This document shows, one piece after another, positions 15,344-27,122 of a stretch of DNA of 64,000 nt (position 1 is the first letter of the stretch; each line of letters opens with the position of its first letter). The notes beneath the pieces are model-generated. The model had not been told where the DNA came from, ran no database searches, and saw only the letters and a list, made by a program, of their open reading frames with translations. This stretch comes from Promethearchaeia archaeon. Lineage in GTDB: Archaea; Asgardarchaeota; Lokiarchaeia; Sigyniarchaeales; SOKP01. The stretch is from NCBI GenBank assembly GCA_029856045.1, contig JAHQWG010000043.1, forward strand, positions 32,001 to 96,000, in the 5' to 3' direction. Both the position numbers and the translations under genes were made by a program.

Positions 15344-15814
15344 TCAATCGAATACCTTTTCTAATACAATTATTATAGGTTTGAAGCCCCCTCCTCTACA
15401 GATAACATCTTGTACTTTTTTATCTCCATCATATGCAAAATTAATTCTTATTCTATCAACACCCCATGATCTTAAGAGTTTAATAGCTCTTTCAGCCAAT
15501 ATCTTCCCTATACCTTTTCCAAGATATTCTTTCTTGGTTGCCCAACTTTCAAGATACCCAATATATTCACCAAGTGAAGATTTTTTAGCTTCTAATACTC
15601 CTAGAGCTACAACTAAACTATCAAATTCAGCAACTAATGTCATTCTCTTTAAATTGGGTTTAAATTGCCGTAATCCGGAAGATTCCTTCCATTTATCTTC
15701 ATTAAATCCCATATCATATAATTCTGATAATTCTTTTAAAATTTCAAGAGTTTCTTGATAATCAGATTTTCGATAATTTCGAATTATAATTTTATCTTCA
15801 TCCATAATCAACAC
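15344..15814 (-). CDS. GNAT family N-acetyltransferase
   Basis: IIIRNYRKSD and acetyl-CoA motif A YLGKGIGKIL. Confidence 0.85.
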   Translation of the reverse strand: MLIMDEDKIIIRNYRKSDYQETLEILKELSELYDMGFNEDKWKESSGLRQFKPNLKRMTLVAEFDSLVVALGVLEAKKSSLGEYIGYLESWATKKEYLGKGIGKILAERAIKLLRSWGVDRIRINFAYDGDKKVQDVICRGGGFKPIIIVLEKVFD

Positions 15815-17179: not shown

Positions 17180-17626
17180 CTAAATGTTGTTTAATGGTCC
17201 TAATTTCTTAATTTGATTTGTAAAAGTAGTTACTAATTCAGCAAATTTTTTCCCTTCACTTGCGGATATCCATTCAAGCCGAAATCTATCCTTTAATCCC
17301 AAATATTTTAAGATTTTCATTAACCGTTCAAATCTATCTTTTGTAAATTCATTCCCGCTAATATAGTGACAATCTCCTATATGACACCCAGTAACTAACA
17401 CACCATCTACATTATCCTTAAAAGATTTCAGAATAAAAGCTGGTTCAACTCGACCAGAACACATTACTCGAATTATTCTAATAGAGGCAGGATACTGAAA
17501 ACGAGATACTCCAGCCAAATCAGCTCCAGCATAGCTACACCAATTGCAGCAAAAACATACAATATTAGGTTTAAATTCCCTATCTTTTTTAACTTGTTTT
17601 TTATCTGATTTTTCTACGATTTTCAT
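17180..17626 (-). CDS. mvhD: MvhD [2Fe-2S] subunit, all-Cys paralog
   Basis: [38 protein letters not shown]. Confidence 0.93.
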
Positions 17627-17645: not shown

Positions 17646-20600
17646 TTAATTTTTTAAATAAGCCTTAATCATCGCATTTATTTGTTTAAAACTAAAATGT
17701 GAAATAAATATGGCCGAATTAGGGCATTGAACACCACAGGTACCACATCCTTTACATAACGCAGAATTAATATTGGATTTTTTTAAACAAAGTGTATAAT
17801 CTTCAAATGTTTTTTCAACCTCAATTAATTCTATTGCGTTATATGGACAAACGTCAGCACATTTCCCGCAGCCGATGCAATAATCTTCAATTACCTCAGC
17901 AACAAGACCAGAAGTTTTCATTTCTTTAGCACTTAAAATCCTGATAGCTCTTCCAGCTGCACCATTTGCTTGAGCTATTGATTCTTGAATATTCTTAGGC
18001 CAATGAGCGCAACCACATAAAAAAACTCCATCTGTTGCAAAATCAATAGGTCTTAGTTTAACATGAGCTTCTAGAAAAAAACCACTTTGATCTTGCGGAA
18101 CTTTCAGCATTTTTGATAATTCTTTAAAATTTTCAGGTGCAATCATAGGTGTAGCTAAAATTATAAGATCGCCATAAAATTCTACTTCTCCTTTTAAATT
18201 GTGTTCGAATAACGTAATTTTATAATTAAATTTTCCATTTTTAGTTTTTGAAATTATAGGAAGTTTATCCAATGAATATCGTAAGAATAAAGCGTTTTTT
18301 CTTGAATCTCTATAAAATTCTTCATTTCCTTTTTTGGACATTTGAAGATCTCGATAAATTAAAATTAATGCCAAATCAGGTTTTAATTTCTTTAAGATAT
18401 TAATATTCTTTAATGCATTTGTACAACATATATTGGAACAATATGTTATACCCTCTTTTTGTCTGGAATTCACACATAAAATAAATGTAATACTTTTAAT
18501 ATTATCTAGCCATTCTATATTTTCTTTCCTTAATTTTTGCTCTAATTCAAGTTGTGTAATAACATTTTTTTCTTTTTTATAATTGTATATTGTTTCCGGT
18601 ATCAACTCATTCGCTCCAGTTGCAACAATTATTATTCCAACTTTTATATTATTTACTTTATTTCCTTTAGTGGTTATTATAACATCATAATTTCCAATAT
18701 ATCCCCTAATTTCCGTGATATTTGAATTCAAATAAATATTAATGTTTGAATGTGATTTTACTTTATTTACAAAAGGTTCTAAAAATTCTGAGGCTTTTTG
18801 ATATCCTGGGAAAATTTGATATAAATTATTTAAATTTCCACCAAGTTTAGATTCCTTTTCTACAAGATGGGTTGTAAACCCTTGTATTGCAATATTTAAT
18901 GTGGCTATTAAACCAGAAATGCCACCTCCGATTATTAATGCCTCTGGAGTAATTGATAGTTTTGATTCTTTTTGTGGTTTTAATAATCTCGATTTTGCAA
19001 CAGCCATTTCTATGAGGTCTTTGGCTTTCTTAGTTCCATCCACTTTTTGTTCCATATGTACCCAAGAACATTGATCTCGAATATTAACCATTTCAAAAAG
19101 ATATTTATTCAAACCCGCTTCTTCACATGTTTCTTGAAATAATTTTTCATGGGTTCTAGGCGTACAGGACGCAACTATAAATCTATTTAAATCATACTCA
19201 GCAATTAATTCCTTAATTCTAGTTTGGGAATCACTAGAACATGAATATAAATTATCTACTGCAACAGTCACATTAGGTAATGTTTTGATATATTCTAAAA
19301 CCTGGGGAACATCTACATATTTTCCAATATTTATTCCACAATGGCAAATCATAACACCTATGCAAGGTTCATCTTCTAAATTTATCTTTTTTTCAGGTAC
19401 AGATACTACCTTTTCTTTTAATAGAGTATTTCTCACTAGATATAGTAATGTTGAAACCTTATTTGCTACTCCACTTGCATCAGCAACTGTTTCAGGGATA
19501 TCTAATGGTCCTTGACAAAAACCACATAGAAAAATTCCTTCTTGTTCAGATGATAATTTATCATATAATGTCTTTTCTTTAAAAAACTTATATTTATCAA
19601 CGTTTATTCCTAATATTTTGGCAACCTTCTCAGAATCCTCAGATGGTACTAATGGTGTTGCTAAAACTACTAAATTTGCCCTTAAATCATGAAATTTCCC
19701 ATCATCGAGATCTTCATATTTTATAATTAAATCTTTAGTCTTAGGGTCTTCTACTATTTTGCTAATTTTTGAATTAAAATATTTAACCCCATACTCATCT
19801 TGTGCTCTTTGAGTATATTCATAAAAATTTTTCCCATATGCCCTCAAATCATGCCTAAAAATATAACATTCTGAAGAATTCGAATGTTCTTTAGTAATTA
19901 TTGCTTCTTTTGCTGTATACATACAACAGACACTAGAACAATAAGGAATTCCAATATGAAAATCTCTAGAACCAGCACATTGTATAAAAGCAATTTTATG
20001 GGGTTCTTTCTCATCTGATAATCTTAAAACGTGCCCCTCGAATGGACCAGAAGCACATAAAATCCTTTCATACTCTAAAGAGGTAATAACATTTTCATAT
20101 TTATAACCCCAATTATCTGGAAGTTTAGAAGCTAACATATCAAAACCAATAGCAACTATAATTGCCCCAACTTCTATTTGGACTTCTTCTGGTTTCTGCT
20201 CAAAATTAATCGCTTGGGCTTCACAGATTCTTTCACAAACTCTACATACCCCTTTATTCAAAAATAAGCACATATCTGAGTCTATTAAATAAACTGGAGG
20301 TACAGCTTGTGGAAAGGGGATATAAATAGATTTTCTTCTCCCCAAATTCATATCAAAAATATTTGGAGCCTCAATCTTAGGACATTTCGAGGCACAATCT
20401 CCACAACCCTTACATTTATCCTCATCCACATATCTGGGTTTTTTTAAAATTTTTATAAAAAAATGACCTGCATGACCTGATACTTCAATGACTTCTGAAT
20501 AAGTCATTAATTTAATATTTGGATTTCTAAAAACCTCAACCATTTTTGGAGCAAGAATACATAAAGAACAATCATTAGTAGGAAATGTTTTGTCTAATTG

Positions 20601-20771
20601 AGCCATACGTCCTCCAATTGAAGGAGTCTTTTCTACTAGAAATACTTTAAATCCCATTTCAGTTAAATCTAAAGAGGCTTGAATTCCTGCAATACCACCA
20701 CCAATTACTAAGGCTGCTCCGATTAAATCATCGGTTTGACTTTTTTGTGATGAGTTTTTACTTTTACTCAT
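17646..20771 (-). CDS. hdrA: Large HdrA-like flavoprotein with two FAD modules, all-Cys
   Basis: Two GGGIxG motifs, QLDKTFPTNDCSLC, internal CHCGINI / SCTPRTHE / NIRDQCSWVH, ferredoxin motifs; 1041 aa. Confidence 0.88.
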   Translation of the reverse strand: MSKSKNSSQKSQTDDLIGAALVIGGGIAGIQASLDLTEMGFKVFLVEKTPSIGGRMAQLDKTFPTNDCSLCILAPKMVEVFRNPNIKLMTYSEVIEVSGHAGHFFIKILKKPRYVDEDKCKGCGDCASKCPKIEAPNIFDMNLGRRKSIYIPFPQAVPPVYLIDSDMCLFLNKGVCRVCERICEAQAINFEQKPEEVQIEVGAIIVAIGFDMLASKLPDNWGYKYENVITSLEYERILCASGPFEGHVLRLSDEKEPHKIAFIQCAGSRDFHIGIPYCSSVCCMYTAKEAIITKEHSNSSECYIFRHDLRAYGKNFYEYTQRAQDEYGVKYFNSKISKIVEDPKTKDLIIKYEDLDDGKFHDLRANLVVLATPLVPSEDSEKVAKILGINVDKYKFFKEKTLYDKLSSEQEGIFLCGFCQGPLDIPETVADASGVANKVSTLLYLVRNTLLKEKVVSVPEKKINLEDEPCIGVMICHCGINIGKYVDVPQVLEYIKTLPNVTVAVDNLYSCSSDSQTRIKELIAEYDLNRFIVASCTPRTHEKLFQETCEEAGLNKYLFEMVNIRDQCSWVHMEQKVDGTKKAKDLIEMAVAKSRLLKPQKESKLSITPEALIIGGGISGLIATLNIAIQGFTTHLVEKESKLGGNLNNLYQIFPGYQKASEFLEPFVNKVKSHSNINIYLNSNITEIRGYIGNYDVIITTKGNKVNNIKVGIIIVATGANELIPETIYNYKKEKNVITQLELEQKLRKENIEWLDNIKSITFILCVNSRQKEGITYCSNICCTNALKNINILKKLKPDLALILIYRDLQMSKKGNEEFYRDSRKNALFLRYSLDKLPIISKTKNGKFNYKITLFEHNLKGEVEFYGDLIILATPMIAPENFKELSKMLKVPQDQSGFFLEAHVKLRPIDFATDGVFLCGCAHWPKNIQESIAQANGAAGRAIRILSAKEMKTSGLVAEVIEDYCIGCGKCADVCPYNAIELIEVEKTFEDYTLCLKKSNINSALCKGCGTCGVQCPNSAIFISHFSFKQINAMIKAYLKN

Positions 20772-23113: not shown

Positions 23114-24595
23114 TTATTTTTTTACATCGAATTCAATTTTTTTACATTTTGAATTTTTAATTCCTGAAATTTTCTTAACCAAACCGAATCCAGGTTTTAC
23201 TTCAGCTAAATCCTTAACTTCTACTAAATTGCCATTTATTAATTTATTAAATAAATCATTCCCAACTTTTGTTCTTGTAATAACTGAAGACCAGCCTGCA
23301 CTAGAACCTATTGAACCTACTGAAATATCTGCAAATTCGGACGTTAAATCACTACAATAATGGCATACATCTCTTGCTAAGGAAGTTACTTCTTTTAATG
23401 GAACTTTGGCTTCTTCTCCATTTTTATCTTTGATAATAAATTTTCCTCCACTAATGTCCATTTTTAAAATGTTCTCTAATTTCTTATTAAAAATTTCAGT
23501 GCTTATTTTGATAACATTATCATAGCTGAATGATTCCATGCAGAATAAACCAATAGTATATTTAATATTATTAAAAAAAGATGTTCCAATTGGATAAATA
23601 CTTCCTTTTTTGAGTGCTAACATCATACATGGAGTTCCAACGACTGCAATTTTATCAAATTTTTGTGCTTCATTCAAAATTGTTAAACTTGGAGAATTAG
23701 CATATTTTGTACCAGCGGTTTTATAAAGATCATCAACATTCTCAATTATAATAGGTTTTGGCCTCCAAATATCTTCAGAATGGGTTACTGCTATCGCAGC
23801 ATCAATTTCTTTTTCTTTTAGTAAATAATATAACAATGTTGTTATTATACCACCATCTTGGCATACTTCTTTAATTTCATCACTTTTTGTACTTGCAGTA
23901 TATGCATTTATATAATAATTACTTGCGGCACCATCCTTCAAATTAGGATTTAATTTATTTAAAACTGTAAAAATATGCTCAGATGGAAATGACCTCGGGC
24001 AAACAGAAAAACAAAGTCCGCATTTAATGCAAGTCTCAGAATCAATTTTAAGATCATCTGCAGTTACTGTTATTGAGCCAACTGGGCATATTGATGAACA
24101 ATAACCACAATTACAACAAAAATTATTCTCAAATACTAAAGACACTGGCTCAAAATAATTTTCTCGAAAAGAATTATCAAGGGATTTGGCTTGATATCGA
24201 ATAATTTCAATCTTAATTTCTTTATCTATCAAATTTCCCTCTTTATTTTTTACTTTTTTAATTTCTGTCTTTATTTCAATTAATTTTTCAACATAACCTT
24301 GTTGGGTTAAATATTCAACTGTTTGTACTAATTTTTTCTTATCATATTCCACTTTCTCCACTATTTCTTCAAGAGTAAGCAGAGGAAGCCCTATTAATTT
24401 TTTTAATATTAAATTTCTTTCTGTCTCAGCATCGAGAAGTGAATCTAAAATAAAATTAAAATCTTCCTCACTAAATCTTCCAAATTTTAAAATATCATCT
24501 TTTCCTTCATATAATGCACGAATTTGAAAATTACTTATAGCGTTATATGTAGATTCCATTAGATTTTTTAGATCAGTATTTTCTATAAGATTCAC
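23114..24595 (-). CDS. FrhB-like subunit with N-terminal helical/winged-helix extension and 2[4Fe-4S] domain
   Basis: CCNCGYCSSICP, CIKCGLCFSVCP, QDGG, AGTKY, GTPC, GLFCMESF, CHYCSD, ADISVG. Confidence 0.88.
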   Translation of the reverse strand: MNLIENTDLKNLMESTYNAISNFQIRALYEGKDDILKFGRFSEEDFNFILDSLLDAETERNLILKKLIGLPLLTLEEIVEKVEYDKKKLVQTVEYLTQQGYVEKLIEIKTEIKKVKNKEGNLIDKEIKIEIIRYQAKSLDNSFRENYFEPVSLVFENNFCCNCGYCSSICPVGSITVTADDLKIDSETCIKCGLCFSVCPRSFPSEHIFTVLNKLNPNLKDGAASNYYINAYTASTKSDEIKEVCQDGGIITTLLYYLLKEKEIDAAIAVTHSEDIWRPKPIIIENVDDLYKTAGTKYANSPSLTILNEAQKFDKIAVVGTPCMMLALKKGSIYPIGTSFFNNIKYTIGLFCMESFSYDNVIKISTEIFNKKLENILKMDISGGKFIIKDKNGEEAKVPLKEVTSLARDVCHYCSDLTSEFADISVGSIGSSAGWSSVITRTKVGNDLFNKLINGNLVEVKDLAEVKPGFGLVKKISGIKNSKCKKIEFDVKK

Positions 24596-24619
24596 CTTCC
24601 TAATTAAATTTTTTTTAAG

Positions 24620-24698
24620 CCCCCATATCCCTTGCAGGGATGTCCCAATAAAATTTCTTAATTTTAAGCTTTAATTTTAAAGATCATTCAAATGGGGG
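24620..24698 (-). ncRNA. Eukaryote-type (type II) SECIS element
   Basis: RNA reads CCCCCAU-UUGA-AUGAU-CUUUAAAAUU-AAA-G-CUUA-AAAU-UAAG-A-AAUUUUAUUG-GGAC-AUCCCUGCAAGGGAU-AUGGGGG. UGAU/GGAC core with tandem G.A pairs, 10-position helix II (two U.U), unpaired AAA, minihelix III, helix I CCCCCAU/AUGGGGG; directly 3' of two UGA-containing genes. Confidence 0.85.
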
Positions 24699-25155
24699 TT
24701 TTAGTTTTTAATTTTTTATCTGCATCTTTTATTTCTGCCTTAAAAACTGCTTGATCTGTTTTTAATGGGTTCAATCCCAATTTTTCTATTTTATTTACCA
24801 TATCTTCGACCGATTTTACAAATTTTACAGCTTCAGCTCCAGTGCAGTTATACATGTTTACTCGGTCTCCTCCCAAACCACGCCTATCTAGAATTCGCCT
24901 AACAAATTCGACATGTTTTGCAGCGATAAAGTTTCCAGTTTTAAATTCACATTGATTTTCTAGTCAGCCTACAACCATTACTCCATCGGCACCATTATTA
25001 ATTGCATAGATTAGGTGTTTTATATCAACTCTACCTGTACAGCGCAGACGAATAATTTTTACATTGGGACTATATTTCAATCTTGAAACACCAGCTAAAT
25101 CTGCAGCACTATAACCTCATTTATTACAAGCAAATGTAATGATATTCATTTTCAT
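24688..25155 (-). CDS. vhuD: Selenocysteine-containing MvhD/VhuD (155 aa, Sec13 and Sec64)
   Basis: MKMNIITFACNK-U-GYSAADLAG...RLRCTGRV...VVG-U-LENQC; TGA at 25119-25117 and 24966-24964 align to Cys in paralog 17180..17626. Confidence 0.92.
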
Positions 25156-25178: not shown

Positions 25179-27122
25179 TTATGCATTTTCCTCCTTTACT
25201 AATGCTAAGACTTGATTAAATATTTGCTCATCTGTATAATATCTAATTTGTATTGCTTGAGTTGGACAACAAGTTGCACAGATTCCACATCCGTCACAAT
25301 TGATCTCATCGACCTCAGCAATTTTTCCTTCAGGTACAATAATAGCATTCTTTGGACAATTTTTTTCGCAGCGACAACAAGAAATACAATTTTCTTCATC
25401 AACAATCGCACATATTAATTCAAGCTCCGCTTCTCCCTTGGATGTTAATTCTGCAACCTTACTTGCGGTTGCTCTCGCTTGAGAAACCGAGTATGATATA
25501 TTTTTTGGTCCTTGCGCAAAACCACAAATATAAATCCCTAGATATTTTGTTTCTTGAGGACTTAAGCCAAAATGATGTTCAGTCAGGTATCCATTTGTAT
25601 CATAATCAATTCCAAGAACATCTGCTATTTGTTTCGTTCCTTTAGATGGTAATACTGCAGTTGATAAAACTACTAAGTCTGCATCAATTTTTATTATCTC
25701 ATCTGTTAATGAAGAATATACTCTTACCTTGAGATTTTTGGTTTCAGAATCCTCTATTAGTTCTGGAACTTTACCTCGAATAAAGTCAATACCTTTATCA
25801 CGAGTTCTCATATAGTATTCTTCAAAGTTCTTTTCAGATGCTCTTATATCAATGTAGCAGATGGTTATATGGCAATCAGGGATTTCTTCTTTAAGTAATT
25901 TAGCATTTTTTAAAGCGATCATGCAACACACACCAGAACAATACGCTCTTTCTGTATCTCTCGAGCCAACACATTGAATAAATAATATTTCTTTAGGTGT
26001 TTTTCCATCTGATGGTCTTTTTACATGGCCCATTGTTGGACCATTTGGTGCTAATATCCTTTCAAGCTGGATTTCGTTTATAACATTTTGATATTCTCCA
26101 TATCCATATTCTATAGGATTATATAAGTCCCAACCCGTTGCAACTATTATTGTACCCACTTCAATTTCGACATATTCAGGTTCTTGACTCAAATCAATTG
26201 CATGTGGCTCGCAAGCATCTACACAGGCATATCATTCAACGCAAGATTCTTTTTCAAGATCATAAACAAAAGGAATAGCTTGCCCAAAACATATATCGAT
26301 ACATTTTCTTGAACCTAAATTTTCTTGCCAATAATTTGGTATGTAAATTGGACATACTGGCGTACAATCTCCACAACCATTACACAAATCTTCTATAACA
26401 TATCTAGGTTTTTTCTTTATCGTAACTTCATAATTTCCAACATATCCTTCAACTTTATCAACTTCACTATAACTAATAATTTCAATATTTTCATTTCGAT
26501 TAGCTTCAAGCATTTTTGGACCAAGAATTCATATAGAACAATCATCAGTTGGAAATGTTCGATCTAACTGAGCCATTCTGCCCCCAATTGTAGTTTTACT
26601 CTCTATTAAATACACCCTTATTCCTTGATTTGCCAGATCTAATGCCGCATTTAATCCAGCGATTCCTCCACCAACTACCAAAGTAGCTTTTTTTATAGGA
26701 ATAATTTTTGTCGGTACTATTTCCAATCTTTTAGCCCTTTCATAACCTGCTCTGCTTAAAATCTTTGCTTTATTGGTTGCTGAAACTTCGTCTTCAGTAA
26801 TCCAAGAACATTGTTCTCTAATATTTACCATTTGAAAATAAAATTTACTAAGTCCTGCCCGTTCTAAAGACTCTCTATAAATCGGTTCATGAGTTCTAGG
26901 AGTTCAAGCTGCCGCTACAACCCGATTTATCTTTTTTTCTTTGATATCATCCATTATTAATTTCTGCCCTTGTTCAGTACATAAAAAACTAAAGATGCGA
27001 CTTGTTTCAATATTATCAAATTGTTTCATATACTCTGCAACTTCAGAACAATTAACTTTCGCAGAAATATTCAAGCCTCATTGACATGCATAATATCCAA
27101 TGCGTAAAATTTCTTTACTCAA
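25179..27122 (-). CDS. hdrA: Selenocysteine-containing HdrA (647 aa; Sec15, Sec73, Sec198, Sec297)
   Basis: Single frame from TTG 27122 to TAA 25179 with TGA at 27080, 26906, 26531 and 26234, in contexts CQ-U-GLNI, AA-U-TPRTHE, DDCSI-U-ILGPKM, CVE-U-YACVDAC; joins three ORF-track fragments without frameshift. Confidence 0.92.

Follow-up and report, generated by a model that had tools for sequence, protein, structure and literature searches.

The closest described relatives of the element reported here are the lokiSECIS elements (Mariotti 2016, PMC4989117), which the text of that article defines by an AUGA directly before a stem and a GA (AA in VhuU) directly after it. The features given there and found again at the locus described below are the AUGA, the 9-bp stem, the A-rich apical loop and the GA; the position at the end of a coding sequence, with one element after vhuD being shared with hdrA for up to six UGAs; and the occurrence of UGA stops at the element together with its overlap with the coding sequence. 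The same source reports that many Loki selenoprotein stops are UGA, where closeness of the SECIS should prevent recoding; that vhuD stops vary, hdrA never ends in UGA and the VhuU AUGA doubles as a stop; and that a few VhuD elements have extra apical pairing or an expanded apical region. No SBP2 is known from Asgard genomes. The article text describes only the stem-loop and core, with no mention there of a third arm, of closure by a helix I or of a C-stem.

A second description, the Asgard eSECIS-like model (Huang 2024, PMC11227280; 2026 review, PMC13188914), gives these elements a eukaryote-style internal loop and lower stem, in which Huang 2024 reports having seen no conserved nucleotides. 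The limits for its type II are stated by Huang 2024 as a GA_[G/A]A core, an upper stem of 7–15 bp with no more than two mismatches, a ministem of 2–8 bp, a bulge of 4–12 nt and an apical loop of 2–6 nt. Euryarchaeal SECIS elements (Methanococcus/Methanopyrus), which we compare by description only, also have a 3′ location, and in their vhuD versions an AUGA faces GAC or AAC between an outer and a main stem (PMC4989117); a third arm is not reported for them in the text of that article. The element described here lacks their GAA_A bulge and their three consecutive G-C pairs, its helix II having a single C-G, and it falls outside the euryarchaeal type.

The hdrA-vhuD locus and its SECIS element

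The window, by which we mean the whole 64-kb stretch of DNA that was analysed, carries the following genes and codons around the element:

25179..27122, minus strand: hdrA, 647 codons, stop TAA, translated with TGA read as U
27080-78, 26906-04, 26531-29 and 26234-32, minus strand: four in-frame TGA (Sec) codons of hdrA, from the translation
24688..25155, minus strand: vhuD/mvhD, 155 codons, stop TGA at 24690-88
25119-17 and 24966-64, minus strand: two Sec TGA codons of vhuD, in frame in the translation
23114..24595, minus strand: downstream cistron encoding an FrhB-like Fe-S protein (Pfam FrhB_FdhB_N/C)

The hdrA and vhuD genes are spaced by 23 bases, and the hdrA fragments in the list of open reading frames end exactly at its four TGA codons. 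The vhuD product belongs to the Pfam FlpD family (PF02662, E 9.7e-44), and orthologues at 92–94% identity retain both of its TGAs. The element itself lies on the minus strand at 24698–24620, in the 92-nt junction between vhuD and the frhB-like cistron, whose GTG start is 25 nt past helix I and is preceded by AGGAAGG. The source genome, for which the closest public records are Promethearchaeota MAGs, has a tRNA-Sec gene; it also encodes three further two-Sec vhuD paralogues, one vhuU and two other selenoprotein genes, each of them followed by a canonical lokiSECIS (AUGA, 9 bp, an 11-nt AAAAA..UAG loop, 9 bp, GA).

Every base named in the original prediction (helix I, the UGA stop, the AUGA, the GA and a hairpin AUCCCU-GCA-AGGGAU at 24641-27) is present on the minus strand, and the element can be laid out as follows:

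24692..24698, minus strand: 5′ strand of helix I, CCCCCAU, inside the last three sense codons of vhuD and pairing with 24626-20
between the helix I 5′ strand and the UGA stop, minus strand: a U, read from the sequence
24689..24690, minus strand: U and G of the UGA stop, one strand of a 2-bp k-turn C-stem with partners C24642 and A24641
24684..24688, minus strand: 3-nt bulge A-A-U (its first A being the third base of the stop), then the G-A of AUGA
24687-84, minus strand: AUGA core, read from the sequence
24673..24683, minus strand: 5′ strand of helix II, UCUUUAAAAUU, from the model alignment
24656..24672, minus strand: apical region with the conserved AAA and an insertion of about 10 nt (the covariance model places an 11-nt insert)
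24668-65 with 24660-57, minus strand: predicted apical ministem CUUA/UAAG (minihelix III)
24645..24655, minus strand: 3′ strand of helix II, AAUUUUAUUGG
24641..24644, minus strand: core G-A (24644-43, putative sheared-pair partners), then C-A, the 3′ strand of the C-stem
24628..24640, minus strand: third arm UCCCU-GCA-AGGGA, present in the centroid fold
24620..24626, minus strand: 3′ strand of helix I, AUGGGGG

The hairpin had originally been drawn with six pairs. Five of them (24640–24628) stand, and the sixth, A24641–U24627, is an alternative pairing; family covariation makes it more likely that A24641 pairs instead with U24690 of the stop codon. As in other lokiSECIS elements, the AUGA and GA flank the stem directly, at 24687-84 and 24644-43. 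Over the nine family-conserved positions of helix II this copy has seven standard pairs (including the C-G and one U.G) and two U.U mismatches, and is weaker there than any other member. The 11-nt lokiSECIS loop with its A-rich start and A-G end is not found in this copy, which has instead an apical region of 21 nt, or 17 nt if two more U-A pairs form; in the model alignment the three invariant apical A positions are matched, the final G of the loop is unaligned, and the insert is common to the orthologues (L011-L013). Set beside the limits of Huang 2024, the stem has 11 positions with two mismatches, the predicted ministem 4 bp, the bulge AAAG plus A, and the loop AAAU, so that the earlier assignment to type II holds, with a ministem that is a prediction.

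We accept the element as real because of homology, in the form of full-length matches to covariance models, and not on thermodynamic grounds. Its folding z-score is only −0.9 to −1.2, and helix II is absent from its minimum-free-energy fold, of which helix I and the hairpin are the most stable and robust parts; the drawn SECIS structure lies 0.5 kcal/mol above the minimum in an energy model that ignores G.A pairs. Folding energy alone is no proof that the element exceeds chance. Because MAFFT misaligned the 3′ half of the heterogeneous elements, a covariance model (R1) was seeded from four well-aligned elements of the other selenoprotein genes in the same genome, with the hdrA-vhuD copy left out, and then iterated. 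R1 matches the hdrA-vhuD element over its full length with 31.6 bits, and it gave about 150 full-length matches in 30 of the 151 genomes of the phylum, including all 25 of the family to which the source genome belongs, f1. A second model (R2), built from 96 of the R1 matches with the hdrA-vhuD copy in its seed, matches the element, again at full length, with 47.8 bits (E 1e-9). By family, the model matches cover the genomes of f1 (25/25), f13 (3/3) and f16 (5/5).

These matches uphold the view of the element as an Asgard SECIS of the eukaryote-like kind. We regard the whole explanation, that this is a genuine lokiSECIS of that type serving hdrA-vhuD, with a family-wide architecture and the role proposed below, as probably correct. 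The R2 search detected no other SECIS in the 64-kb window at E≤0.01, and the element, as the only model match in the window, would be the one SECIS for six UGAs, four in hdrA and two in vhuD. Rfam, with its SECIS families included, gave no match at gathering score anywhere in the window and no credible match at E≤10 on 24500–24800, three weak matches (snoR4, adapt33_2 and a CRISPR repeat) being ascribed to chance; according to the text of Mariotti 2016 (PMC4989117), eukaryotic and archaeal SECIS tools likewise missed the Loki elements.

Several further candidates were set aside. A weak match at 15456–15541 of the window (minus strand, 16 bits, 9-bp stem, AAAAGGUAUAG loop) has AAGA instead of AUGA, lies inside an ORF and is probably due to chance; another, at C3:26828-26888 (L101), overlaps the start of a sugar-kinase-like ORF; contig C51 has a weak model match only; and the simple-descriptor matches on C27 and C41 are repeats or chance. 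A metagenome scan with a VhuD alignment returned 80 loci, mostly of Cys-type MvhD since its patterns used Cys codons, with SECIS elements only at L017, L030 and L061.

What is particular to this copy is its apical insertion of about 10 nt, the two U.U mismatches in helix II, a G/C-rich 7-bp helix I and a UGA at −3, and its scores are the lowest among the f1 elements, which otherwise lie at about 46–85 bits with R1 and 51–78 with R2. Across four species-level genomes only 2 of its 79 positions differ, and one of these, 24641, falls in the proposed C-stem pair and stays pairing-compatible. This near-identity of the variant argues for function, and it also means too little variation among the four genomes for covariation of the ministem, which stands as a prediction. 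By itself the hdrA-vhuD element is a real but ordinary, slightly aberrant member of a known element, and adds little.

The gene string that contains the Sec-type pair also includes a Cys-type mvhD (17180-17626, minus strand) and a large hdrA-like gene (17646-20771, minus strand); two frhB-like genes and one hdrD-like gene separate the two pairs. A 51-codon ORF at L014:2356-2608 (G000:C10) encodes a small membrane-spanning protein that ends in ...GGGG-Sec-Cys and matches no Pfam family above cutoff, with a canonical lokiSECIS, complete with helix I and third arm, about 35 nt downstream; small proteins like it (a cluster of 6, e.g. L186) lie upstream of SECIS elements in other genomes. A 117-codon ORF at L015:1565-1984 (G000:C32) matches no Pfam family and has two in-frame TGAs side by side (..DAGC-Sec-Sec-EKV..); it is followed by a lokiSECIS in which the TAA stop lies inside helix I and UG/CA takes the place of AG/CU, as at the hdrA-vhuD element.

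A third arm and a C-stem across the family

The extra hairpin had been taken for an oddity of the hdrA-vhuD element, and this does not hold. The segment following the GA folds into a hairpin of 3–7 bp in 92 of 93 distinct family elements, whatever the gene (mean z −2.9 against shuffles), the lone exception being an element that was truncated in the alignment and whose arm is obvious on inspection, and the hairpin is present also in 16 of 16 elements outside family f1, among them members of f8, f13, f16 and f19. Paralogues within the same genome have a GCA-loop hairpin after GA-C and a closing helix I, in sequences that differ from copy to copy. The genes upstream of arm-bearing elements are those for VhuD (49), VhuU (16), HdrA (8), a small membrane protein (6), SelD (2), a Prx-like protein (1) and others; the arm is tied to at least six selenoprotein gene families, and independently of the gene.

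Covariation of the hairpin, proposed originally as a test, is seen as compensatory changes around an invariant C-G pair. In the R2-refitted alignment of 95 distinct rows that pair is C-G in 94 of 94, and the remaining outer pairs of the arm are CG80/UA8/UG5, AU37/CG8/UA8 and AU36/GU16/UA14/CG3, while the two innermost 'pairs', with pairing in only 63%, may be part of the loop. Taken over all its pairs, the structure has 87% of cells paired, as against 62.5% in shuffles, and the covariation score is 0.636 against 0.207 shuffled and 0.07–0.14 with partners slid, numbers that overstate the independent events, since the alignments counted were fitted to the model, which favours the structure, and many rows are close kin. 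All five pairs of helix I vary on both sides across the family, and family helix II is 94% paired with 9 of 9 pairs covarying. Minimum-free-energy folds of four single sister elements give the three-way junction unaided, with no fitted alignment, and the presence of the arm in other families with different stems and loops is likewise independent of that alignment. That the hairpin makes a three-way junction, as had been proposed, is supported by family covariation and by these unaided folds.

The arm loop contains a G in 93 of 96 rows and a C in 85 of 96, the next nucleotide being a purine as a rule, and in f1 it takes the form YUGCAR. Loops elsewhere include AGAAUGCA in f16 and, in f13, also CAAAGCA. 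A heptamer, GUAAGCG, is the arm loop in f8 (L196-L198, L204, L205), in f19 (L192-L195, L202, L203) and at L131 (f13), and in f8 RNAfold draws it as a C-GUAA-G tetraloop; it is different from YUGCAR, yet G-C-purine at the 3′ end is common to both. By inspection, the arm loop has no complementarity to the apical loop or to the 3′ end of tRNA-Sec. We do not put forward an anticodon-loop mimic (loop U-GCA-A), the loop sizes ranging from 3 to 8 nt, or a switch in which GGGA 24646-43 would pair with UCCC 24640-37, the loop of which would be 2 nt.

Two nucleotides, usually A-G, precede the purine-AUGA and can pair with the two that follow the GA, usually C-U, and the pairs so formed vary in a correlated way. 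The G-C pair at −1 is GC in 92 rows and AU in three, with none unpaired; the A-U pair at −2 is AU in 66 and UA in four, and is mismatched in 21 of 91. The U-A variant is found in the hdrA-vhuD element and its orthologues, in a second gene of the same genome and in two other f1 elements, and it is found independently in f16. Between these strands all 96 rows have the AUGA, with a purine just before it in 93 of them, and the A of the core GA is invariant and is followed by a C in 93 of 96. Given this covarying 2-bp stem, the core becomes a k-turn with a 3-nt bulge, and the family layout would be a 2-bp C-stem (AG/CU as a rule, UG/CA at hdrA-vhuD), a bulge R-A-U, tandem G.A/A.G, helix II as the non-canonical stem, and an A-rich apical loop. 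In 34 of 95 rows helix II opens with a non-Watson-Crick pair, and the first pair of a k-turn non-canonical stem is commonly of this kind.

The same order of C-stem, 3-nt bulge, tandem G.A/A.G and non-canonical stem makes up the standard k-turns of Kt-7, the U4 snRNA 5′ stem-loop and box C/D, the bulge of the U4 snRNA k-turn being AAU. In the hdrA-vhuD element the corresponding parts are U24690–A24641, G24689–C24642 and a bulge A-A-U, with the −1 and −2 pairs covarying. Judged by its sequence, the core is a standard, canonical k-turn adjoining a three-way junction of C-stem, helix I and third arm, and its G.A pairs would presumably have the sheared geometry of k-turns, which are kinked by about 50 degrees and bind proteins of the L7Ae family. 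In k-junctions such as those of the TPP riboswitch and DUF-3268 (PMC10573300) the third helix similarly lies on the non-bulged strand, directly opposite the bulge and between A1n and the C-helix; the arm described here begins two nucleotides after the A of the GA, and as those two covary as the C-stem the layout resembles a k-junction without quite fitting the strict form. Of all the elements, the selD SECIS comes nearest to a true k-junction. It lies on the minus strand of the same contig, outside the window (G000:C44, ~100.3–100.5 kb), and has a 9-bp helix I (AAUGAUGAC/GUCAUCAUU) abutting U-AUGA, a 7-bp helix II with a type II top, and 7 nt after the GA, then a 3-bp hairpin ACC-UGUGU-GGU directly before helix I.

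With eukaryotic SECIS elements (Rfam SECIS_1; SBP2/L30-bound) the hdrA-vhuD element shares the AUGA...GA quartet, the purine before the AUGA, the unpaired adenines atop helix II and a helix I below. It differs from them in the absence of an Rfam match, in its shorter helix II, in having a 2-bp C-stem and a 3-nt bulge instead of a large internal loop, in its additional third arm, and in lying at the stop codon and not far out in the 3′ UTR. Where the eSECIS-like model has the 3′ strand of an internal loop, the element has a conserved hairpin, together with two nucleotides that pair across. A third arm is not mentioned in the article texts, figures and supplements aside, of Mariotti 2016, Huang 2024, Sun 2021 and the 2026 review, nor in what a literature search on SECIS and three-way junctions returned, and the conserved third arm appears to be undescribed so far.

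The stop codon within the element

The UGA stop of vhuD (24690-88) does lie inside the element, immediately before the AUGA, as had been noted; what cannot be kept is its description as an oddity. In all 86 elements with a clear upstream frame the stop is within −23 to +18 nt of the AUGA. The stop is UGA in 37 of these; 31 use the UGA of the AUGA itself, 22 use a UAG at −4, and a UGA at −3 is confined to the hdrA-vhuD element and its orthologue. Among the VhuU genes (L016:801-1046 and 15 related loci) it is the core AUGA that supplies the in-frame UGA stop, as has been published already for VhuU.1. A stop embedded in or touching the element is the rule, and the UGA stop there, which is discussed in Mariotti 2016, is published knowledge. 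Because the vhuD stop lies in the C-stem and bulge, and helix I in the last vhuD codons, a ribosome arriving at the stop would already have melted the element, and the UGA would then act as a terminator of translation; the same argument is made in Mariotti 2016.

Alternative readings and a possible role for the arm

The original prediction had held the extra hairpin and the embedded UGA to be special to vhuD, coupling its translation to SECIS availability and recruiting a vhuD-specific factor. All the motifs are indeed present, and termination does require a ribosome to open helix I, placed as it is in the last codons; but the arm, and a stop equally close by, also occur at elements downstream of the genes for VhuU, HdrA, SelD, Prx-like and small membrane proteins, as well as in five of the families (f1, f8 and so on), and Mariotti 2016 had already described UGA stops at the element as general among Loki archaea. 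Since arm and stop closeness are family-wide, no vhuD-specific coupling is needed, and we consider the proposal, which this distribution largely refutes, to be very unlikely. Much the same low probability attaches to the idea that the hairpin and helix I form a separate element beside the SECIS, such as an mRNA-stability or processing hairpin, a terminator, or a regulator of the frhB start. Its intercistronic position, 25 nt before the next start, and the stability of helix I and the arm, unmatched elsewhere in the fold, would suit such an element, yet the arm is fixed directly after GA-C regardless of what lies downstream, helix I always encloses both core and arm, and the conserved loop motif and the covarying C-stem tie the arm to the core; a terminator in particular is rejected for want of a U-tract downstream of the element.

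A different doubt concerns this copy alone, which could be a decaying SECIS, functioning poorly or not at all, with the six TGAs read poorly or with other help. It has the lowest f1 score, an expanded loop and the two U.U mismatches, and helix II is missing from its minimum-free-energy fold. The variant is nevertheless nearly unchanged in four species-level genomes in which both vhuD TGAs are kept, no second match turned up in the window, the SECIS structure costs no more than 0.5 kcal/mol over the minimum even though G.A pairs are ignored, and expanded apical regions have been published for a few VhuD elements (PMC4989117, article text); we think decay most improbable.

On the reading we favour, that of a working SECIS with a family-wide architecture, this one RNA element would let six upstream UGAs, 0.27 to 2.4 kb away, be read as selenocysteine. 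The most likely role of the arm would be a structural one: held between helix I and the third arm, the 2-bp C-stem would be clamped, giving a pre-set kink. The arm loop may in addition offer a second, sequence-specific contact for the reader in an organism without SBP2, be it L7Ae, EFsec or another protein. Against this stands work on k-junctions, in which L7Ae can be blocked by a third helix close by (PMC10573300). We also advance, tentatively and as a possibility that may well prove wrong, a broader interpretation: Asgard SECIS elements would be k-turn-centred three-way junctions and not two-helix eukaryote-like hairpins, the G-C-purine loop of the arm would be the determinant for an archaeal SECIS reader (EFsec, L7Ae with a partner, or a new protein), and the eukaryotic internal loop would be the remnant left after loss of the arm, its role having passed to SBP2.

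It has been proposed that Asgard SECIS elements connect selenocysteine decoding in archaea with that in eukaryotes, and we know of no archaeon in which the SECIS-reading protein has been identified. Current SECIS descriptors end at the core and upper stem, and a third arm with a fixed loop motif, together with the C-stem, changes the structural model by which Asgard SECIS elements are searched for and compared. The arm gives a concrete bait, and concrete mutants, for finding the SECIS reader, and the third arm and its G-C-purine motif should sharpen the prediction of selenoprotein genes in Asgard genomes.
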